DNA of 60,528 nt. Source: Patescibacteria group bacterium. Lineage in GTDB: Bacteria > Patescibacteriota > Minisyncoccia > Moranbacterales > GWC2-37-73. The notes below the pieces were generated by a model. That model worked only from the letters and a program-made list of their open reading frames with translations, was not told the origin of the DNA and did no database searches. This document shows positions 2,020 to 13,224 of this stretch, piece by piece. Each line of letters starts with the position of its first letter. The first letter of the stretch is position 1. A program made the translations under genes and the position numbers. Location of the stretch: NCBI GenBank assembly GCA_036391995.1, contig DASVYU010000034.1, positions 1 through 60,528 of the forward strand, given 5' to 3'.

Positions 2020-4383
2020 TTAGGATTCAATTTTGCCATTTTTCATTTTCACTGGTAAAGTTGTTTCCAGTTTTTCGTTGAAATTTCTGTCATGGCTGAT
2101 TGATATAAAGGTCACATCCGCATTTCTCTTTTTCTCCACGTTGATTATTTCAGCAATTTTCATGGCAGTTTTCTCATCAACTGAAGCGGTAGGCTCATCC
2201 AAAAAAACAATTCTGGAATTATTCTTCCTCATTTTAAGAATCGCTCGCGCCAATCCAATTCTTGATGTTTCTCCGCCTGAGGTTGTTCCAACATCTCCGC
2301 GACCCCCTTTTAACTTTTCATTCAGATTTGGAAACCTGTCGCTTAGACCCACTTCCTTCAATACTTCTCGAATCTCACTTTCCGAAACATCTCCCGAAAT
2401 TCCAAATACCAGATTTTTCTTGACCGTATCCTCAAGTATATATGGGAACTGTGAAAGGTAGGCTATTTTACTGTAAATCGAATCACTGCCACTCTTTTTT
2501 ATATTTTCCAGTTCAGTTCCACCAACCTCAACTGTTCCCTCAGTAGGTTTGTAGTATCCTGCCAATACTTTAAGTAGGGTGGTTTTCCCCGCACCTGACA
2601 ACCCCTCAAGCGACACCAATGAACCGCCTGGGATTTCCAAATTTATGTTGTCCAGTATCTTTTTATTATCAAATTCAACCCCTACATTTTGCAGCCGTAT
2701 ATCATTACCTTTCAGTTCACCCATTCCAACTCTATCTTTTTCTTTTTCCTTTTCTTCTTCGGCATATCCGTTGAACATCGTTTCCATTTGAACTATATCC
2801 CTAAACGAAGCCATCAAATCCCGCCTAGAACTCAGTATACTAGAAATACCCTGGTTGAAATTTCCCGAATAAAGCAGTGAGGCGATAAATTTATCGGAAG
2901 TTCCACCTGCAAAGTAGGTTGCAATTCCCGCAATTATGAAGTTCAGCATCTTTGTGGATTCCGCAACCTTGTTTCTGACAACTTTTATGAAAGTTTTGTC
3001 TGACATTGCCACCCGCTCTTTGGATAACAATTCTTCAATTTCATCGGCAAATTTTTCTTTTTCCCCTGAAAGTATGACCTCCATGTGAGCATTAAGGAGT
3101 TCTTCCATTTTTTGCGCCATTTTCTCTGCCTCATTTTCAGCCCTACTTTGTTTTTCCCAGAATTTACCCTTTTTGTGAACATACCTATCAATTATCATCA
3201 TGGCTCCCGCTCCTACGGCGGTTCCTGCTGCCAATACGGGACTTTTTTCGTAAAGCATGGCAGCACTTGTAGCCAAGGTGACAGTCGCAGGCAACACACT
3301 AAAACTTATCGTCCTCAGTATTTCCTCATAACTGGATTTTGCGTTGGCAATTCTACCCTTTATTCTCTCCATACCAAATTTACCCACTTCATCACCAGGG
3401 AATTCTGATATATTTTCTGACAAATAATCGGCATACCCTTCTTTTTTCTGAAAGTTCTGGTCGAGAAAATCCTTAAACTGTCTTTCAATCAATGCGGAGC
3501 CTCCAGCTGAAGCCGCTGAGAGTAGGGCAAACAGTCCTATTTGAGCCATTTCAATCTTGTCTCCCTTAAACGCATTAGCGAGAAACATTGGGGCGTATCC
3601 CTCCAAAAAAGCAGGAACCATCAGAGCGGCTGACAGGCCGACATATTTAGTTTTGTCGCCTGACATAAATCTTGAAAAAATATCCCTCACTTTTGATAAC
3701 ACCTTTATGTCATGGATTTCAAGACTATCCAATTTTTCTATATTACAAGTTTGTATCAATTCCTCGATTTCTTTCCGTTCAAATCCAGCCTGTTCATATT
3801 TTCCATACACTTTTTCCACCAATGCGCCCTTCTTTTCGTCCTTGGAATAAAAATTCAACTTTCTAGCCTGGTTTTCCTTGATGATTAAATCTTCTGCCTC
3901 TCCCACATTATTTCTGAATTGTGCGGCGTTGTGTGCCAATCTATATGAATCGAAATATGCACGCAATTCTTCAAACAGTTCTTTTTCAGCAGGTTCAATT
4001 TTTTCCACAGACTCATCATCAAAAACAACCACCATGTTCCCCTCGGGGTCTTCACTAAAACTTTCAATTTTTTTCGTATCTTTCCCATAGTGAGCCATGT
4101 CAAACATCAACTGCTTTATTTTCTGTTCAGTTTTTGTATCAATTCCATCCACATACTCGCTCGCTACGATTTTCCCTTTTATTTCTCTCCTTATTTCAAG
4201 CATGTCCAAAACCAGTTCTTTCGGTAGTTCTTCCGTGCCAAACATTTCCCTAACTGAACCTTTGACGGATTCTAAATATTGTTTTTTTGAATCCATTAAC
4301 TCACCCCTTTCGGTGCCTAGTTCTTTTTTGGGTTCTAGTTTTGGTTTTTCTGAAACAGGCATTGGCATATATTGCTCTTTCAT
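2020..4383 (-). CDS. ABC transporter, fused permease/ATPase, with about 240-aa acidic N-terminal extension
   Basis: Hydrophobic TM block; Walker A GLSGAGKTT; signature-like TSGGE; Walker B VFLDEPT; H-loop SHD. Confidence 0.88.
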   Translation of the reverse strand: MKEQYMPMPVSEKPKLEPKKELGTERGELMDSKKQYLESVKGSVREMFGTEELPKELVLDMLEIRREIKGKIVASEYVDGIDTKTEQKIKQLMFDMAHYGKDTKKIESFSEDPEGNMVVVFDDESVEKIEPAEKELFEELRAYFDSYRLAHNAAQFRNNVGEAEDLIIKENQARKLNFYSKDEKKGALVEKVYGKYEQAGFERKEIEELIQTCNIEKLDSLEIHDIKVLSKVRDIFSRFMSGDKTKYVGLSAALMVPAFLEGYAPMFLANAFKGDKIEMAQIGLFALLSAASAGGSALIERQFKDFLDQNFQKKEGYADYLSENISEFPGDEVGKFGMERIKGRIANAKSSYEEILRTISFSVLPATVTLATSAAMLYEKSPVLAAGTAVGAGAMMIIDRYVHKKGKFWEKQSRAENEAEKMAQKMEELLNAHMEVILSGEKEKFADEIEELLSKERVAMSDKTFIKVVRNKVAESTKMLNFIIAGIATYFAGGTSDKFIASLLYSGNFNQGISSILSSRRDLMASFRDIVQMETMFNGYAEEEKEKEKDRVGMGELKGNDIRLQNVGVEFDNKKILDNINLEIPGGSLVSLEGLSGAGKTTLLKVLAGYYKPTEGTVEVGGTELENIKKSGSDSIYSKIAYLSQFPYILEDTVKKNLVFGISGDVSESEIREVLKEVGLSDRFPNLNEKLKGGRGDVGTTSGGETSRIGLARAILKMRKNNSRIVFLDEPTASVDEKTAMKIAEIINVEKKRNADVTFISISHDRNFNEKLETTLPVKMKNGKIES

Positions 4384-4493
4384 ATAGTTTGCAGTGTATT
4401 ATATTATTTCCATTGTGCTATATAGTTCGTTTTGATATATTTAGTATATAAATTTACCTGTAAAATAGCAATGATTGCAGGGAAAACAAAAAC

Positions 4494-5321
4494 ATGGAAG
4501 AAAAAGACATTGAAGAACAGGCTGGCGATACCATGAAACTTATCCTGGACCAAATTTGGCTCCATTTTTTACAGTCGCGCCAGGGTAGTGATGAAACATG
4601 GTATGAACTTGTTGACCCTGAAAAAAATCCTGTGGCAGGCTCACATAACGAACAGGAAGGTCTTTTAGATAAAATTGAACACTGGAATCCTCCCATTATT
4701 CAAGGCAGAAAATACAATTCTGAAAAGAACAGGACGGAATTTACCATTGTCCACCCACATTTTGAAAAGTTTTACAAAACTTTTGCCAATCCGCGGGAAG
4801 CCTATGCAAGATACAGAATCGGAATGGTTATCCCTATTCAGCTTCCCGACGGAACTACCTGGGAGCATATCACGGTAAAATTCCTCAATGGCAATGATGT
4901 AAAAATTACTCTGCTCAATCACCCTGAATTTTCCCACCAAACTTCCTACAACGAAATGGGGTTCAGAAACAACAAGAATCAAGCCCCAAACAAGCAATGG
5001 GAACTTCTCCTAGCATTAGCACAAAACAGCGGTTCCATATTTTGGAGTAGCACTTCCAATCTCCCTCAGAAAATGATAAACAACCTCAAATCTCAGAAAA
5101 TGCTTTTGTCCAAGAAACTTGAGGCATATTTCCAACTCAAAGATGACCCATTTTTTGATTACAATACGCAAGACGGATACAAAATCAAAATGACACTTGT
5201 TCCAGAGAAAGCAGAGAGCAAAGCACCTAAGAGCAAAGATGATGACCTCGGCATAGTTGAAGCCTACAATGAGCAAGCAACTCAAGCCTGGGAGGATGAG
5301 CCTCGAGAGGAGCAATGGTAA
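4494..5321 (+). CDS. Hypothetical protein, possible C-terminal winged-helix DNA-binding domain
   Basis: 275-aa ORF; C-terminal KQWELLLALAQ...KMLLSKKLEAYF...GYKI resembles an OmpR-type wHTH by eye. Confidence 0.65.
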   Translation: MEEKDIEEQAGDTMKLILDQIWLHFLQSRQGSDETWYELVDPEKNPVAGSHNEQEGLLDKIEHWNPPIIQGRKYNSEKNRTEFTIVHPHFEKFYKTFANPREAYARYRIGMVIPIQLPDGTTWEHITVKFLNGNDVKITLLNHPEFSHQTSYNEMGFRNNKNQAPNKQWELLLALAQNSGSIFWSSTSNLPQKMINNLKSQKMLLSKKLEAYFQLKDDPFFDYNTQDGYKIKMTLVPEKAESKAPKSKDDDLGIVEAYNEQATQAWEDEPREEQW

Positions 5322-5363
5322 AATTTAGCCTTCGGTGAATTCACCCACCAATATTTTTTTCGC

Positions 5364-5390
5364 AAAAGCCTTTTTTCAAGGGCTTTTTTG
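5364..5390 (+). terminator. Intrinsic terminator
   Basis: AAAAGCC / GGCTTTT stem followed by a T tract after the 4494-5321 ORF. Confidence 0.55.
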
Positions 5391-5443
5391 TTTTTCTCAG
5401 TTATTTTTCACCATATAGAAATAGAGAACTAAACCCTATTTCT

Positions 5444-5722
5444 ATGCAACTAACTGACAAACAAATTGAAGATTTCCAACTTCTTTGGAAAAATCGCTTC
5501 GGCTATGACCTTCCTCGCAAAGAGGCTTTTGAGCAAGGAACTAAACTTGTCCGTCTTATGGAACTTATCTATCAGCCTATGACTGTTTCCGATTATGAGA
5601 TTATCCAGAAAATGCGTGCTGAAAGAATCAATAAGTCTGAAAGGCTAAACAACACAGAAAATTCCACAGGGGGCAGACAATATGTCGTAAAGCGTATCAA
5701 GTCGGGAGCAGAAAAACAGTGA
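5444..5722 (+). CDS. Small recombinase-associated hypothetical protein (92 aa)
   Basis: Directly upstream of recombinase 1; homologous by eye to 8780-8947. Confidence 0.75.
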   Translation: MQLTDKQIEDFQLLWKNRFGYDLPRKEAFEQGTKLVRLMELIYQPMTVSDYEIIQKMRAERINKSERLNNTENSTGGRQYVVKRIKSGAEKQ

Positions 5723-5795
5723 AATTATAGGTGTGAATAAGTGCCTAAATATGGCTTGTTTTAGCCAAATTATGTGATATACTCCATCCAAACAA

Positions 5796-7490
5796 ATGAA
5801 CGAAAACAACCAAAAAATAGGATATATTGTCTATACCAGGAAGTCCACGGAAGGTGATGAGAAACAGGCTTTGAGTATAGATAGCCAGAGGGAAAAAGCC
5901 ATGGAGATTTTTCCTGATTTGCGTATTGTCGATGTTGTGGAAGAAAAAAAGAGTGCGTTCACCCCATACAATCGCCCAGTTTTTGCTGAAATGCTAACAC
6001 GGATTAAGCGCGGAGAGGCGCAAGGTATCATTGCTTGGCATCCTGACAGACTTTCCCGCAATGAAATTGACGGCGGTTTGATTACTTTCATGCTTCGCCA
6101 AAAAGAAATTTTGGATTTGAAGTTCTGTTCCTATACTTTCGACAATTCTCCTGAAGGTATCATGTTTTTGCAACTAGCACTTTCGCAGTCTCAGTATTCT
6201 TCCGCTAAATTGAGCAAGGATGTGAAACGGGGTTTGGAAAAGAAGCTAAAAATGGGGTGGCTTCCTGGGGTTGCTCCGTCTGGATATTTGAACAATAAAC
6301 TGGCACAAAAAGGTGAAAAAGAAATACTGGTTGACCCTAACAGATTTCCCCTGATACGCAAAGCCTGGGATTTGCTTTTGACAGGCAGTTATACTGTCCC
6401 TCAAATTCTCTACAAACTAAACCACGAATGGGGTTATCGAACTATCAAGCGAACTAAAGAAGGTGGCAACCCCATGTCTCGCAGTGCTTTGTATAAAATT
6501 TTCACTAATAGTTTCTACGCTGGACCCTTCGAATACAGCGGTAAGATATATCAGGGTAAGCACGACCCCATGATAACACTCGAAGAATTTGACCATGCTC
6601 AAATCATACTTGGCCGCAGTGGAAAACCTCGACCACAAAAATACTCATTTTCTTTTTCTGGAACTTTTCGTTGTGCTGAATGTGGTTGCTTGTATGTGGC
6701 TGAAAAAAAGCACAAGGTTATCAAAGGCACTGGCGAAGTCCGTTCCTATATCTATTATCATTGTTCCCATTCTAAGCCAAATTATCGTTGCTCTCAGCGT
6801 TCAAGTATAACGCAAGAGAGACTAGAACTATTAGTATCTACGGAATTAGAAAACTGGACAATTCTTCCTGAATTCAGACAGTGGGCTGTAGACGCTCTAA
6901 GTAGCTCACATAAGAAAGAGGTTGAGGCTAGGAGCAAGATATATGAAACTCTACACAAAGAACTTGTATCCCTTCAGTCAAAAGAGGATAAATTGATTGA
7001 TATGCGTTGTTCAGGACTCATTGATGACGACAAATACACGGAAAGAGCCGCTGAAATGCAAAAGAGAAAGAAAGAGGTGCAGGAACTACTACGCGACACT
7101 GAGAATCGTGCTGACAAGTGGGTTGCTCTCACTGAAAAGACTTTTGATTTCGTCACCTATGCTCTTCAGTCTTTCGTTTCTGGCGACGCTCAAATTAAAA
7201 AGGAGATTATATTAGCTCTATCATCGAACCAGAAAATAAAGGACGGAAAACTCTTTGTTTCAGCTAACAAATGGTTGCAGCCTATTGGAAACAGCTATCC
7301 TGCCCTCAAAGAAGAATATCTTACACTAGAACCGCTGGAAACAGTATCAAATAAAGCAAAAACGGAGGCTTTGGATGCTCTCCGTCTACGATGGCTCCCA
7401 ATAGTTGATGTATTCAGAAGGCTTGGACAAAGGAAAATGGAAGAATCGTTTGCAATCTTGGAAATGAATTTTGCTCAATATGCCATATAG
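5796..7490 (+). CDS. Large serine recombinase 1 (resolvase + recombinase + zinc ribbon + coiled coil)
   Basis: Catalytic YTRKST; HPDRLSRN; alpha-E LSKDVKRGL; zinc ribbon CAECG...YYHC. Confidence 0.95.
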   Translation: MNENNQKIGYIVYTRKSTEGDEKQALSIDSQREKAMEIFPDLRIVDVVEEKKSAFTPYNRPVFAEMLTRIKRGEAQGIIAWHPDRLSRNEIDGGLITFMLRQKEILDLKFCSYTFDNSPEGIMFLQLALSQSQYSSAKLSKDVKRGLEKKLKMGWLPGVAPSGYLNNKLAQKGEKEILVDPNRFPLIRKAWDLLLTGSYTVPQILYKLNHEWGYRTIKRTKEGGNPMSRSALYKIFTNSFYAGPFEYSGKIYQGKHDPMITLEEFDHAQIILGRSGKPRPQKYSFSFSGTFRCAECGCLYVAEKKHKVIKGTGEVRSYIYYHCSHSKPNYRCSQRSSITQERLELLVSTELENWTILPEFRQWAVDALSSSHKKEVEARSKIYETLHKELVSLQSKEDKLIDMRCSGLIDDDKYTERAAEMQKRKKEVQELLRDTENRADKWVALTEKTFDFVTYALQSFVSGDAQIKKEIILALSSNQKIKDGKLFVSANKWLQPIGNSYPALKEEYLTLEPLETVSNKAKTEALDALRLRWLPIVDVFRRLGQRKMEESFAILEMNFAQYAI

Positions 7491-7589
7491 AGCCTGCTCT
7501 ACTTATAAAAATATAGATATGAAATTTATAAAAAAAGTCGCCACAGGTTTCCCTAATGACGACTTGAAGGTCTTTGACTGCCAACTTCG

Positions 7590-8153
7590 TTATTCAACGA
7601 TTTCAACAGTCGGACATATTTTTTGCTTCTTAGCTTTTGCGAATTCAACAAACATCTTGTATGTTTCCGATTTTTTTACAGCTTTCGTCATACAGAGGAG
7701 TATTACAAACACCGCAACGCCTGCCACCCAGCTCCAAAAAAATCCTGAGAAGACAGTGTGCTTTGCAATGCCCACAATGGTTGACCTTCCCACCATCATC
7801 GTGTCTTTTGGGTTAAAAAGGATGAAAGCCACAGCCACCCCGTATATAGGGTATACTCTCCAGCCTTTTATCGTGGGCCACTTGTCATAAGGAATGAGTG
7901 AATCACCTTTGTAGTCACCCTTGAATACTGGTGGCCTGTGCGCTATCCAAAAACCCAAAGTATAGCCGATGGCGGGAAAGAAGATATAGAAAATAAAATG
8001 TATCGCGCAGTAGGCAATTCCTACAATAGGCCAGCCAATGAAAAACATAAGCAAAAAACGCCAGAACAGTTTGCACAGATTTGTTTTTCTTGGACACCCA
8101 CCTGACAATCCATACGCAACCTTGTAAACGAAGCCCTCTTTCTTTATTTTCAT
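7590..8153 (-). CDS. Hypothetical membrane protein (probable start 8153, MKIKKEG)
   Basis: SD AAAGGAG upstream of ATG 8153; several hydrophobic segments; cargo of element 2. Confidence 0.75.
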   Translation of the reverse strand: MKIKKEGFVYKVAYGLSGGCPRKTNLCKLFWRFLLMFFIGWPIVGIAYCAIHFIFYIFFPAIGYTLGFWIAHRPPVFKGDYKGDSLIPYDKWPTIKGWRVYPIYGVAVAFILFNPKDTMMVGRSTIVGIAKHTVFSGFFWSWVAGVAVFVILLCMTKAVKKSETYKMFVEFAKAKKQKICPTVEIVE

Positions 8154-8779
8154 AATCTGCTCCTTTCCGCCAAAGGCGAGTTTGATTTTGTAGCTACAGT
8201 AAAGCAAAAATGGAAGCGAATTGTCAAATAAACTGATGTTTGAGTATACATCCATTTTATAAAATTGTCAAGTATTGAAAATGGCTGAAATAAGCCTTTT
8301 TCAAAAAGTATATCAACAATGAGCAACAGTTTTGGCAAATTTTTTGCACAAAGCAGCTTCTTTTATGTAAAAAATGGCTTATGTAAAGCATTTCATTATC
8401 TTTCAGTGCATAAAATAGGTGCAAAATGATGAGAAAAATGTTGCTCATTCGCACTTTTGCGCTGTTCATTCGTGCTCATTCAGGGTTTATAGGGATTTTT
8501 TGACCACAAATGTCGGTTATTTCAAAAAGGGTGGCAACCTTTACAAGAGGGTCATTTCCTGCTATCATAGGGTATAGTAATTAAGCCAATTTCATAAGTT
8601 TTGGAGAACACTTGGCGTAAATCCAGGAAACAGATAGGCTCTTGAGCCAAATATCCAGCCCTGCAGTAGCTGAGGATAACAAAGCGAACGTATCATCAAC
8701 TTTAGGTTGAGGGCTTTTGTTATCATTTTTCCAAAATTCATATCTCAGAAACCAGCAACCTCAAAGTTCGCTGGTTTTT

Positions 8780-8947
8780 ATGTTATTTGATGAAAAGATA
8801 TTTTATGAAAAATTAAGCAAAAAAGAACTTTCAGGGCAGGAAGTTTTTGCAGCCAAGAGTAACTTGGTCGGCTTTTTTGATTTGCTCTACCAAATTGACA
8901 AGAAAAAGAAGGAGGATAAATCTTCAAGTTCAGCAGGCTCTACATAA
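8780..8947 (+). CDS. Small recombinase-associated protein (55 aa from ATG 8780; 76 aa from TTG 8717)
   Basis: ELSGQEVFAAKSNLVGFFDLLYQ aligns with DLPRKEAFEQGTKLVRLMELIYQ of 5444-5722. Confidence 0.7.
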   Translation: MLFDEKIFYEKLSKKELSGQEVFAAKSNLVGFFDLLYQIDKKKKEDKSSSSAGST

Positions 8948-8995
8948 TAAAAACTTGGAACGGCAGTAGAAAATAATTTTATAAATTCCAAAACA

Positions 8996-9181
8996 ATGAG
9001 TAAAGAGCAACCAATGATAAAATCCAAAAAGGAATTAGAGGCGGCAATAATGGAACTACTAAACGACTATTACAGACTTGAAATTTCAGGAAGAATAAAA
9101 AGAGGCTTGGCTAAGCGAAAAATAGTTTTAGAAAACGCCAAAAGGTCATATAATACACGCAACATTAAGACCAAAAAATGA
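8996..9181 (+). CDS. 61-aa peptide resembling the serine-recombinase alpha-E helix
   Basis: YYRLEISGRIKRGLAKR matches YSSAKLSKDVKRGLEKK of recombinase 1; ATGA overlap with the start of recombinase 2. Confidence 0.7.
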   Translation: MSKEQPMIKSKKELEAAIMELLNDYYRLEISGRIKRGLAKRKIVLENAKRSYNTRNIKTKK

Positions 9182-10668
9182 AAGCGATATTGTTGGCAAG
9201 AGTCTCGGACAAAAAACAAGACTCCAATGAAGCACAAGTTTCCAAAGTGTCAGAATATGCAAAAATCAAAAGCCTGGAAACTTGGAAGACATATGAACTG
9301 GAAGAATCTTCCACCAGAGGCGACAGGAAGAGGTTTCAGGAAATAATCAGGGACATTGAAAATTCAAAAGAACCCGTAGCCTTAGTGGTGGACACAGTAG
9401 ATAGGCTTCAGCGAAGTTTCAAGGATTCAATTATTTTGGATGACTTCAGAAAAGCTGGAAAGCTGGAAATACACTTTTGTCGTGAAAATCTAGTCCTACA
9501 CAAAGATTCAAATAGTTCTGATTTGCTTCGCTGGGATATGGCGGTTATGTTTGCTAGAAGCTATGTCCTCCAGCTTAGCGACAATGTCAAAAGAAAAATT
9601 GACCAAAAGCTAAGAAACAAAGAATGGATAGGACAAGCGTATGTAGGATATAAAAACATAACGCTGACTGACGGAAGCAAAGATGTCGTGCCAGACGAAG
9701 ACAGAGCACATCACATTCAGAAGATGTTTGAAATGTATGCCACGGGAGGATATTCAATGAAGCAATTATCAAAAGAAATGTATGCCAAAGGACTTAGGAG
9801 CAGAAGCGGGGTTAAGGTATCCACAAGTCAGATTCACAATATGCTGCGAAATCCATTTTACTATGGTCAGATGAAAGTCAAAGGAAAGCTATATGACCAT
9901 AAGTATAGACCTCTCATCCAAAAACTTCTTTTTGACAAAGTGCAGGACACAATCAATGGCTATAATAGACAAAATTTCAAAAGGAGCAATAAGCCTTATG
10001 TTTTCAGGGGACTCATAAAATGCTCCCACTGCGGTTGTTCCATAACTCCAGAGCTTCAAAAGGAATATGTCTATTATCACTGCACGAACTTTCACGGCAA
10101 TTGCCCCAACAAAAAAGTCTGGCTCAGAGAAAAGGATTTGCTGGAACAAATAAAAGTCGTGTTTCAGAGCTTGAAGCTAGAGCCTGACGCACTTGAAAAA
10201 TTGAAGGGCGAGCTAAGAGCCGCGCACGCATCAGAAAAAGAATACTATGAGCAAAACATCAATGGACTCAAAAGACAGTTGGGACAAATTGATTCCAAGC
10301 TCAAGATTATGTATAACGACAGATTGGTTGGAAGAATTACAACTGACGAATATGATGAGTTGGTCAAAGGCTATAAAGAGGAACAGCAAGACCTCCTCCG
10401 CCAATATGAGGAACATTCTGAGGCTGATAAAAATTTCTACATTACAGCCAACAAAGTATTAGACTTAACTCAGAGGGCTTGGGAGCTATTTGAAAATTCT
10501 GAACCAAAAGAAAAAACCCAACTAGTGAGTTTTCTACTTCAGAACCTTTCGCTAGAAGGGAGAAACCTTTTATTTGAGGTTAAAACTCCCTTCAATGGCA
10601 TAGTGGAATATGCCAAAACTAAAGAATGGCTCCGCGACCAGGATTCGAACCTGGAACCAATTGGTTAA
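9178..10668 (+). CDS. Large serine recombinase 2; last 13 codons are antisense to tRNA-Asn
   Basis: Catalytic ARVS; TVDRLQRS; LSDNVKR; zinc ribbon CSHCG...YYHC...C; ends WLRDQDSNLEPIG* inside the tRNA. Confidence 0.95.
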   Translation: MKAILLARVSDKKQDSNEAQVSKVSEYAKIKSLETWKTYELEESSTRGDRKRFQEIIRDIENSKEPVALVVDTVDRLQRSFKDSIILDDFRKAGKLEIHFCRENLVLHKDSNSSDLLRWDMAVMFARSYVLQLSDNVKRKIDQKLRNKEWIGQAYVGYKNITLTDGSKDVVPDEDRAHHIQKMFEMYATGGYSMKQLSKEMYAKGLRSRSGVKVSTSQIHNMLRNPFYYGQMKVKGKLYDHKYRPLIQKLLFDKVQDTINGYNRQNFKRSNKPYVFRGLIKCSHCGCSITPELQKEYVYYHCTNFHGNCPNKKVWLREKDLLEQIKVVFQSLKLEPDALEKLKGELRAAHASEKEYYEQNINGLKRQLGQIDSKLKIMYNDRLVGRITTDEYDELVKGYKEEQQDLLRQYEEHSEADKNFYITANKVLDLTQRAWELFENSEPKEKTQLVSFLLQNLSLEGRNLLFEVKTPFNGIVEYAKTKEWLRDQDSNLEPIG

Positions 10669-10701
10669 CAGCCAACTGCTCTACCGTTGAGCTATCGCGG
10701 A
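10627..10701 (-). tRNA. tRNA-Asn (GTT), CCA encoded
   Basis: TCCGCGATAGCTCAACGGTAGAGCAGTTGGCTGTTAACCAATTGGTTCCAGGTTCGAATCCTGGTCGCGGAGCCA folds into a full cloverleaf. Confidence 0.97.
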
Positions 10702-11172: not shown

Positions 11173-11373
11173 TTTGACAGCCCACCACGGAAAACCTTCC
11201 GTCTCGGTGGGTTTTCTGTTTTTGGATAAGACATGTAATAAAGCATGTTAAGCGGTTGTATCAATGGTATGCAAATGGAAGCTAAAGGCGGGAGAGCCTA
11301 ATTATTTTTTTCAGGATCGGCTATTGCAATTGCTTTATATAATATGCACATAGGGCCGGTATCCCTCGATTAT

Positions 11374-13224
11374 ATGCCCAAAAAAATCAAAAGACAGCAA
11401 AAAAACAGCATCGTCCCAAAGACGGTTTTATTTACTGTTCTGCTTCTGCTTGCAGCTTATTTTGTTTATCACTCCGTCCGTCCAGTTCGAGATTTTGTAG
11501 ATTATCGCTTTGCTGTCATGTTTTCAAAAAAAATCAACAAGCCTTCGGGGGACACGAAGTTCTCTCAAAATCAGAATCAGATGCAAAGCGGGGCAGCAAA
11601 CATGGCTTCTTCGGAAGCGTATCTTGCCGAAAATACCAATGCTTCTGTGCAACGCGAATTCAAACATGACCAGCTGGATCCCCAAAGCTTGCAGAAATTC
11701 GTTGATCCTCTGCCGTTGCCGAGCGTTTTGAAACCGACCGGGCAAATGGGCGGGAAAGATTATTATGAAATTTCCATGAGTGAAGCCAAGCAGAAACTGC
11801 ATCGCGATATGCCAGAGACGACCATATGGGGTTATAATGGGCTTTTCCCTGGACCGACCATCGAGGCTCGCAGCGGAGTACCGATCAAAGTAAAGTGGCT
11901 GAACAATCTTCCTTACAAGCATTTTCTTCCTATAGATACTTCCGTAGATGGCGCTGAAAATCCTAATGACCCACAAGTCAGGACAGTCATCCATTTGCAT
12001 GGAGGGCACGTGCCTCCTGAAAGCGATGGGTATCCTATGGATTGGTTCGCTTCAGGTGGTTCTTCGTCTGTTATTGATTATCCCAACAATCAAGCGTCTT
12101 CAATGCTTTGGTATCATGATCATGCTATGGGAATCACGCGTCTCAATGTAGAAGCTGGCTTGGAAGGCTTGTATTTCATACGTGATTCCGTGGAAGAAAG
12201 CATGAATCTGCCCAGGGGTGATTACGAAGTTCCGCTTGTCATTCAGGACAGATCTTTCAACAAAGACGGATCGCTAGATTATCCTTCTGAGGGCAGTGGC
12301 AGCATGCAGACTAGTTCTTCAAAGATCGCGGCAGAAATGCCTAAACCTTCGATCGTGCCGGAGTTTTTTGGAGATTTCAATCTGGTAAATGGAAAGATGT
12401 GGCCGTTTTTGGAAGTAGAGCCTCGCAAATATCGCTTCAGGATTTTGAATGGTTCCAATGCACGTTTTTATGATATAAATCTTTCCAATGGCGCATCATT
12501 CTATCAGATCGGAAGCGAGGCTGGCTTTCTTAGCGCACCAGTGAAGGTCAATAGATTATTGCTTGCTCCTGCTGAGCGTGCAGATGTGATAATTGATTTC
12601 AGCAAATTCAAAGGTGCCGCAATAACCCTCAATAATGACGCATCGGCGCCGTATCCATCCGGTAGCAAGGTTGATGCAAACACTGGCAAAATCATGCGGT
12701 TCGTTGTCAAAAAAACGCTCACCGGAAACGATTCAAGTGTGTTGCCGCAAGCATTGCCCGCAGTTGAGAGATTGCAAGAAAAAGATGCTGTGACAGAAAG
12801 GAATATAGCGCTTATAGAAAAAACTGACAATTTCGGGCGTCTAATGTTGACGATCGATGGTAAGCGTTGGAATGATCAAGCTACGGAGACGCCGAAATTA
12901 GGAACGACTGAGATATGGAACATAATAAACACCACGCCTGATACGCATCCGATCCATCTGCATCTGGACTATTTCCAGATATTGGACAGGCGCTCATTCA
13001 ATGTTGCTCAATATGATAAGACGGGCAAAGTCATATTCACTGGAAAGGCTAGAAAACCGGATCCTAACGAAGCTGATTGGAAAGACACATTCAGAGCCAA
13101 TCCGGGGGAAGTTTCAAGGATAATCGTGCGTTTCACGGATTATTCAGGGAGATATTTGTGGCATTGCCACATTCTGGAGCATGAGGAATATGAAATGATG
13201 CGTCCGCTTGAAATAATGCCTTGA
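11374..13224 (+). CDS. Multicopper oxidase (CotA/bilirubin oxidase-like) with N-terminal membrane anchor; start may be 11344
   Basis: All four Cu motifs: HLHG, WYHDH, HPIHLH, HCHILEHEEYEM. Confidence 0.93.
   Translation: MPKKIKRQQKNSIVPKTVLFTVLLLLAAYFVYHSVRPVRDFVDYRFAVMFSKKINKPSGDTKFSQNQNQMQSGAANMASSEAYLAENTNASVQREFKHDQLDPQSLQKFVDPLPLPSVLKPTGQMGGKDYYEISMSEAKQKLHRDMPETTIWGYNGLFPGPTIEARSGVPIKVKWLNNLPYKHFLPIDTSVDGAENPNDPQVRTVIHLHGGHVPPESDGYPMDWFASGGSSSVIDYPNNQASSMLWYHDHAMGITRLNVEAGLEGLYFIRDSVEESMNLPRGDYEVPLVIQDRSFNKDGSLDYPSEGSGSMQTSSSKIAAEMPKPSIVPEFFGDFNLVNGKMWPFLEVEPRKYRFRILNGSNARFYDINLSNGASFYQIGSEAGFLSAPVKVNRLLLAPAERADVIIDFSKFKGAAITLNNDASAPYPSGSKVDANTGKIMRFVVKKTLTGNDSSVLPQALPAVERLQEKDAVTERNIALIEKTDNFGRLMLTIDGKRWNDQATETPKLGTTEIWNIINTTPDTHPIHLHLDYFQILDRRSFNVAQYDKTGKVIFTGKARKPDPNEADWKDTFRANPGEVSRIIVRFTDYSGRYLWHCHILEHEEYEMMRPLEIMP

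Follow-up and report, generated by a model that had tools for sequence, protein, structure and literature searches.

Which role is played by small proteins encoded just upstream of large serine recombinases (LSRs), and do they belong functionally to these enzymes? The question is raised by a contig from a Patescibacteria group bacterium (C34; GenBank assembly GCA_036391995.1, contig DASVYU010000034.1), whose 60,528 nucleotides (nt) were analysed as a whole and are referred to here as the window; it is part of a genome of the Patescibacteria type of about 1 Mb in 47 contigs. The window encodes two LSRs, LSR1 and LSR2, each with a small open reading frame (ORF) on its 5′ side, and an initial annotation had proposed that the two small proteins, here termed A and B, form a new family of recombination directionality factors (RDFs) or regulators. 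We find that A and B are members of an undescribed, unannotated protein family, here termed S, which forms part of the backbone of plasmid-like integrative elements that, in Patescibacteria, target tRNA genes and are moved by LSRs. As to its function, S may possibly serve as an RDF-like cofactor of its cognate LSR, a reading we favour tentatively.

Two Small Proteins of One Family

Both small ORFs, with the peptides on which the proposed homology had been based, are present in the window. Protein A, comprising 92 amino acids (aa), is encoded on the forward strand at 5444-5722 and contains DLPRKEAFEQGTKLVRLMELIYQ as residues 22-44. Protein B, comprising 55 aa when counted from the ATG at 8780, is encoded on the same strand at 8780-8947 and contains ELSGQEVFAAKSNLVGFFDLLYQ as residues 16-38. 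The two recombinases, likewise on the forward strand (LSR1, 5796-7490, 564 aa; LSR2, 9178-10668, 496 aa), both carry the Pfam domains Resolvase, Recombinase, and Zn_ribbon_recom. They had been described as very divergent, and indeed share 26% identity. That both recombinases are preceded by the small protein holds literally for A, which stands directly before LSR1; B is separated from LSR2 by a 61-aa ORF.

Both genes are real and under purifying selection, with Nei-Gojobori ratios of nonsynonymous to synonymous substitution rates of 0.09-0.16 for A and 0.09-0.42 for B when compared with their relatives. Database searches returned six homologues of A and 12 of B, and relatives of A are encoded at 23 additional loci in genomes of Patescibacteria. 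Their recombinases accompany them: LSR1 orthologues of 80% identity lie downstream of A homologues in loci L001 and L003, and in all five metagenomic loci with B, which represent three distinct elements, the gene is found upstream of, and at most 250 nt from, a 60%-identical LSR2.

When the two peptides alone are compared pairwise, the match is weak (8 of 23 positions identical, 35%; E = 0.002 for one comparison). Profiles are more telling. An alignment of A homologues and one of B homologues match each other in hhalign over 33 columns (P = 7.7e-5, probability 62%; thinner alignments gave 3.4e-4). When all 22,642 ORFs of the genome are searched with an A-only hidden Markov model (HMM), the B of the window ranks third (E = 0.064; next match, 3.3), the second match (7e-20) being an ORF of 55 aa on contig C44, where it overlaps the beginning of a third LSR gene. 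Furthermore, an intermediate ORF (L024, 4400-4561; MLSKKLIDEYKQIIKEDYGLELSDEDAHDCATNLVDYFELLMKIDHQ...) is matched by both the A-only (1e-6) and the B-only model (7e-5), and a member of the B family in L007 matches the A profile at 3e-5. On the strength of these profile comparisons, A and B are therefore treated as two distantly related subfamilies of the one family S, as the initial annotation had anticipated.

Size, Sequence, and Predicted Fold of Family S

With a profile of 40 members, S is represented by 3,166 clusters at the 50% identity level at E ≤ 1e-3, a threshold which misses very divergent short members such as a weak B-like ORF on contig C13; 390 of the clusters are found at E ≤ 1e-10. 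Almost all of the clusters consist of free-standing proteins with 50-100 aa. The conserved core is a hairpin of helix 1, a loop, and helix 2, with the pattern F/Y-x2-hydrophobic-Y-x3-F-G-x-E/D-hydrophobic-S-x-E-E-A-x-E-x3-L-V-x2-hydrophobic-E-L-hydrophobic-Y. In the AlphaFold2 model of A, helices span residues 5-19, 25-42, and 48-72, strands are lacking, the predicted local distance difference test score (pLDDT) exceeds 90 for residues 1-60, and the tail is disordered. In B, a lysine-rich tail ending in a conserved SAGST takes the place of helix 3. The predicted fold of S is, thus, all-helical: a hairpin followed by either a third helix or a basic tail.

Neither A nor B has a match in Pfam or PHROGs at E ≤ 1, and the 40 profile members gave scattered matches in these databases, with no plausibly related family and none common to more than four members. 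A sequence search of the PDB returned no significant match for S, a Foldseek comparison of the A model with the PDB no match (best E-value, 2.6), and tblastn against annotated phage and plasmid records no S match. In a scan of IMG/VR, B had no match, and the sole match of A, within a phage protein of 1,586 aa, was taken to be a false positive. The idea that S mimics a part of the recombinase, such as its helix E, coiled coil, or C-terminal tail, was dropped after an hhalign comparison between the S profile and an alignment of LSRs had found nothing.

Linkage to Large Serine Recombinases

A profile-based co-occurrence check, which the initial annotation had recommended, turned out in favour of a link between S and LSRs. 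Among 401 evenly sampled Patescibacteria genomes, 85 have S and 251 have an LSR, defined as a match to PF07508; an LSR is present in 79 of the 85 S-bearing genomes versus 172 of the 316 genomes without S (odds ratio 11, Fisher p = 1.9e-12). At the level of loci, stretches of 10 kb to either side of the 80 best S hits yielded 82 unique S genes as an unbiased sample. An LSR of at least 300 aa occurs in the fetched stretch for 45 of them; in 39 of these 45 cases, it is co-oriented with S and follows it at a distance of -31 to 6,478 nt. In L019, S and LSR share a reading frame and are 45 nt apart. Hence, 48% of the sampled S genes have a co-oriented downstream LSR within 6.5 kb; for any LSR within 10 kb, a rough estimate based on about two to three LSRs per 1-Mb genome gives about 5% by chance.

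The linkage is specific to a clade. S is found upstream, on the same strand and within 12 kb, of 28 of the 37 LSRs (76%) that score at least 290 bits against LSR1, which corresponds to about 35% identity or more (the LSR1 clade); of the nine that lack it, at least three lie at contig ends. More distant LSRs (220-290 bits against LSR1) have an upstream S in only 9 of 63 cases. Upstream of each of the four closest relatives of LSR2 (at least 50% identity), an S hit lies at a distance of 4.5-6.5 kb; two of these hits are weak (E 4e-4 to 9e-4), and among the 21 LSR2 relatives overall there are six or seven with S upstream. Pairwise distances between S proteins correlate with those between the paired LSRs (Spearman 0.65, Mantel p = 0.001).

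Within the genome of the window, a clear S gene lies upstream of three of the four complete LSRs, and a weak one upstream of the fourth. On contig C44 (47642-49464), the A-like ORF of 55 aa and the beginning of the LSR gene overlap, and at its 3′ end the LSR gene continues into sequence whose translation resembles that of a tRNA gene. On contig C13 (66-3816), the order is weak B-like ORF, 389-aa Rep-like ORF, 61-aa ORF, small ORF, membrane ORF, and LSR; judged by eye, the small ORF resembles an HTH_17 excisionase. An LSR fragment is present on contig C22.

A Possible Cofactor of the Recombinase

These data fit a small protein-binding module in the conserved backbone of LSR elements. The elements that combine S with an LSR are small, plasmid-like, and integrative, and they lack structural and conjugation genes. 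S heads a co-directional backbone block that ends in the LSR gene, and stripped-down elements, to which both elements of the window belong, retain nothing but S, in some cases a micro-ORF, and the LSR. In the mechanism we envisage, S would contact its cognate recombinase protein-to-protein as a cofactor and would set the direction or the activity of recombination once the backbone operon is switched on. We tentatively favour this reading because it explains why S is retained in a clade-specific and co-oriented manner beside the LSR in minimal elements, and because it agrees with established traits of the RDFs of LSRs (PMC12286644; bioRxiv 10.1101/2024.08.21.608926). A far-reaching version, in which S is the cognate RDF of the whole Patescibacteria-wide clade of tRNA-targeting LSRs, appears unlikely; there, a hairpin of about 45 residues would dock on the coiled-coil/DBD2 junction, S and LSR would together make up a complete, reversible two-gene cassette for integration and excision, and longer forms of S would be DNA-tethered versions of the recombinase-binding module.

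A number of observations weigh against a cofactor role. Six of the 85 S-bearing genomes have no PF07508 match at all, three near-complete genomes (94-100%) possess S but no LSR, and the S genes of such genomes are orphans among housekeeping genes. About 45% of the sampled S genes have no LSR within 10 kb according to a detector HMM that was built from 25 LSRs and may miss divergent recombinases, with tyrosine integrases outside the screen. The LSR is rarely the gene next to S: among 112 unique S genes, this applies to 15 (about 13%, on greedy ORF calls in the fetched loci), so that the arrangement noticed for A does not hold as a general rule; the commonest neighbours are DUF5659 and replication genes. 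The immediate 5′ neighbour encodes a DUF5659 protein in 33 of the 112 cases, at gaps of 0-10 nt. The congruence of S and LSR clades can also be explained by shared descent of the whole element. Sequence, Foldseek, and hhalign searches revealed no similarity of S to known RDFs, to solved structures, or to any LSR segment. The long forms of S that were examined are found in defence-island contexts and none has an adjacent LSR, which points to a broader function of the S domain in dimerisation or partner binding of DNA-binding regulators. Finally, the likely co-transcription of S and LSR would bring RDF and integrase together, which is awkward for integration after transfer.

The Element Backbone and a Possible Role in Replication

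The rarity of direct LSR adjacency and the frequency of DUF5659 and replication genes beside S mean that S could instead belong to a replication or regulation module. S would then be a regulator or adaptor of an early replication module, for instance a small partner of DUF5659 and of the initiator or primase that takes part in controlling transcription, origin licensing, or copy number, and its link to the LSR would be an indirect one via the shared backbone. We regard this as only slightly less likely than the cofactor reading; the neighbourhood of S speaks for it in several respects. Apart from its tight pairing with S, DUF5659 occurs in 29 of the 58 modules that run from S to the LSR (S-to-LSR modules); the window does not encode it. 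Immediately 3′ of S, there are genes for Toprim primase-like proteins of 400-740 aa (11 cases), winged-helix initiator-like proteins with HTH_36/DnaD_N (7), Phage_CRI rolling-circle Rep proteins (4), and Phage_rep_org_N proteins (2). On C13, the weak B-like ORF directly precedes the 389-aa ORF, which resembles the Phage_CRI Rep of L013. The canonical order of the module is XRE regulator, an ORF of about 250 aa, DUF5659, S, primase or Rep, an ORF of about 180 aa, an ORF of about 200 aa ending in "...HRTPCNY", and LSR. The linkage of S is, thus, to the element backbone rather than one of strict adjacency to the LSR.

However, the replication gene beside S varies (Toprim primase, winged-helix initiator, Phage_CRI Rep, or none), while S stays. 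In L075, L095, and L103, S follows the primase and directly precedes the LSR. S is also kept in minimal backbones without a recognised replication gene, among them both modules of the window, that of C44, and those of L001, L003, L004-L008, L077, L088, L089, and L107. The changing replication gene, the position of S directly before the LSR, and these minimal backbones together speak for assigning S to the recombinase and not to replication. Neither AlphaFold2 nor Foldseek detected a DNA-binding fold in the short form, which is a further point against a role of S in the replication module.

The protein of about 200 aa in the canonical module (cluster c1; e.g., L011, 3522-4130; L014, 2723-3331; L023, 7038-7628; L029, 6901-7491; L032, 6003-6593) ends in "...LHRTPCNYGS", has no Pfam family, and is encoded directly 5′ of the LSR in 19 of the 58 S-to-LSR modules. 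It is absent from the window and represents a competing candidate for a recombinase accessory factor. A toxin-antitoxin relationship between DUF5659 and S was considered as well; no evidence speaks for it, and S occurs without DUF5659 in the window. A literature search retrieved nothing on DUF5659 or on serine-recombinase elements of Patescibacteria.

Long Forms, Orphan Copies, and a Possible Role in Regulation

A long form of S, of 170-230 aa and with 29 database relatives, begins with the S domain, which a conserved linker (RLKKEPKGFH) joins to a zinc ribbon of the type CxxC...CxxC; a helix-turn-helix with a beta wing forms the C-terminus. No Pfam family covers this long form. Its members (alignment A6) include those of L046 (203-823), L052 (9453-10070), L055, L073, L074, and L078, and the S profile matches residues 1-57 at 1e-10 to 1e-16. 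Four of the examined long forms adjoin defence-type cargo identified through Pfam, comprising a TPR-PIN system, a UvrD/PD-(D/E)XK helicase-nuclease, and a type IIG restriction-modification enzyme. From the fused forms and the orphan copies taken together, it follows that the S hairpin is a portable module, able both to join a DNA-binding domain and to persist alone. In L063, from a complete genome without LSR (G051), two near-identical S genes (9854-10060 and 11231-11386) flank a 1.2-kb segment with two ORFs on the opposite strand; this arrangement may have arisen by duplication or may be what is left of a small cassette.

Starting from the long form, S could be understood as the stand-alone oligomerisation or partner-binding hairpin of a winged-helix regulator, i.e., as a SinI-like switch or anti-repressor of the backbone operon that would control the expression of the LSR rather than its chemistry. 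This is quite unlikely in our estimation. The model of the long form, which joins the S domain to the zinc ribbon and the winged helix, is of good quality (pLDDT 87.7; predicted template modelling score, 0.75) and has weak Foldseek matches to winged-helix regulators and to Cox of phage P2. S is also the first gene of an apparent operon behind a promoter-like site, and XRE regulators are encoded just 5′ in many modules. However, the Foldseek matches are non-significant (E > 0.1), the genome of the window has no long form, all three of its S hits being short, and the examined long forms sit in other genomes and not in the elements that carry short forms. Nor were operator-like repeats identified.

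That the resemblance of A and B is fortuitous or meaningless, the small ORFs being conserved leader peptides or fillers without a specific role, is barely conceivable: the pairwise similarity is as short as stated above, but thousands of members share the hydrophobic pattern, the genes are under purifying selection, the fold is predicted confidently, intermediates connect the subfamilies, and the linkage is specific to one LSR clade.

Genetic Context of the Two Modules

The module of LSR1 is preceded on the forward strand by a 275-aa ORF (4494-5321) without a Pfam family, which is the conserved upstream partner of A in its closest relatives: counterparts with 48-56% identity are located directly 5′ of the A homologues in L001-L003 (cluster c8 of the module maps), and the protein is one type of the canonical ORF of about 250 aa. 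Between this ORF and A, a consensus scan found a terminator-like hairpin (5364-5387, forward strand), and it found no terminator-like site between A and LSR1; the position of the hairpin suggests that A and LSR1 form a separate transcription unit. Between the two recombinase modules, the reverse strand encodes a 221-aa membrane protein (7590-8255), which is assigned to phrog_944 ("membrane protein", E = 1e-7) and is probably cargo.

In the module of LSR2, a promoter-like site (TTTACA-17-TATCAT with an upstream TG; 8540-8568, forward strand), also from the consensus scan, lies 212 nt 5′ of B. The 61-aa ORF between B and LSR2 (8996-9181, forward strand), whose stop codon and the start codon of LSR2 overlap (ATGA), lies outside family S. 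It has counterparts with 50% identity in L004-L006 and a 55-aa ORF at the same position in L008; in L007, no ORF was called there. This small protein is an alternative candidate for a cofactor of LSR2. The last 42 nt of LSR2 overlap a tRNA-Asn gene (GTT; 10627-10701, reverse strand) that was identified with ARAGORN and is probably the integration target and the right edge of the LSR2 element. Repeats of tRNA-Asn fragments and other direct repeats were sought for the left borders of the two elements and none were found, which is the expected result for serine recombinases, since these have 2-bp cores.

The G+C content at 4001-10000 is 0.37-0.41, compared with 0.42-0.48 in most of the remaining window, which is consistent with a foreign origin of both recombinase modules. 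At the beginning of L008 (1-216), there is a fragment 93% identical to 42 residues of LSR2; the B gene that belongs to the next element follows about 4.3 kb downstream. This fragment and the tandem of LSR1 and LSR2 in the window suggest head-to-tail arrays of elements at one target.

Significance

Serine integrases are prized as tools for genome engineering. To our knowledge, the cognate RDF is known for few of them; RDFs are hard to find because they have no common fold. A tiny family that tracks one large integrase clade would offer many natural pairs of integrase and cofactor for testing, and it would help to explain how abundant, undescribed plasmid-like integrative elements are excised and re-inserted in bacteria of the candidate phyla radiation. 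If S were the RDF of the whole clade, its thousands of members would amount to a catalogue of orthogonal LSR-RDF pairs. Even as a regulator or replication adaptor, S, an unannotated family of over 3,000 clusters, would serve well as a marker gene of these elements.

Comparison with Known Systems

Excisionases of the AlpA/HTH_17 type, which have a MerR-like winged helix, resemble S in being small and encoded upstream of an integrase, and the long form of S is predicted to have a winged helix of this general kind at its C-terminus. In contrast, the short forms have neither the helix-turn-helix with wing nor a Foldseek match, and none of the 40 profile members matches HTH_17 in Pfam, the excisionase class being defined by a match to PF12728 or PF05930. 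Since a winged helix is missing from the short form, S is placed outside this class.

In the SinI/SinR system, a helical hairpin that stands alone shares homology with the domain through which a DNA-binding regulator oligomerises. Similarly, S has a homologue in the N-terminal hairpin of its own long form, a larger DNA-binding protein; however, a long-form partner is lacking in the genome of the window and in these elements, and S and SinI have no sequence similarity. DUF5659 (PF18903), a Pfam family of unknown function, is the commonest neighbour of S and forms a tight gene pair with it in many elements, but is a separate protein from S.

The RDFs of LSRs themselves stimulate recombination of attL with attR and inhibit that of attP with attB; a small and all-helical example is Orf7 of TP901-1. 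These factors share no common fold, bind at the junction of DBD2, the zinc ribbon domain, and the coiled coil, and are often proteins of early or replication modules (PMC12286644; bioRxiv 10.1101/2024.08.21.608926); the RDF of phiRv1 is predicted to contact its integrase through helices only (PMC12286644). S differs from all of them in lacking detected similarity in sequence or fold, in being usually co-oriented and probably co-transcribed with the LSR, and in having orphan and fused forms. On the other hand, it is like them in being small, encoded by the LSR's own element, specific to an LSR clade, free of a DNA-binding fold, and often part of an early or replication block. If the cofactor reading is true, S would be an additional member of this heterogeneous class.

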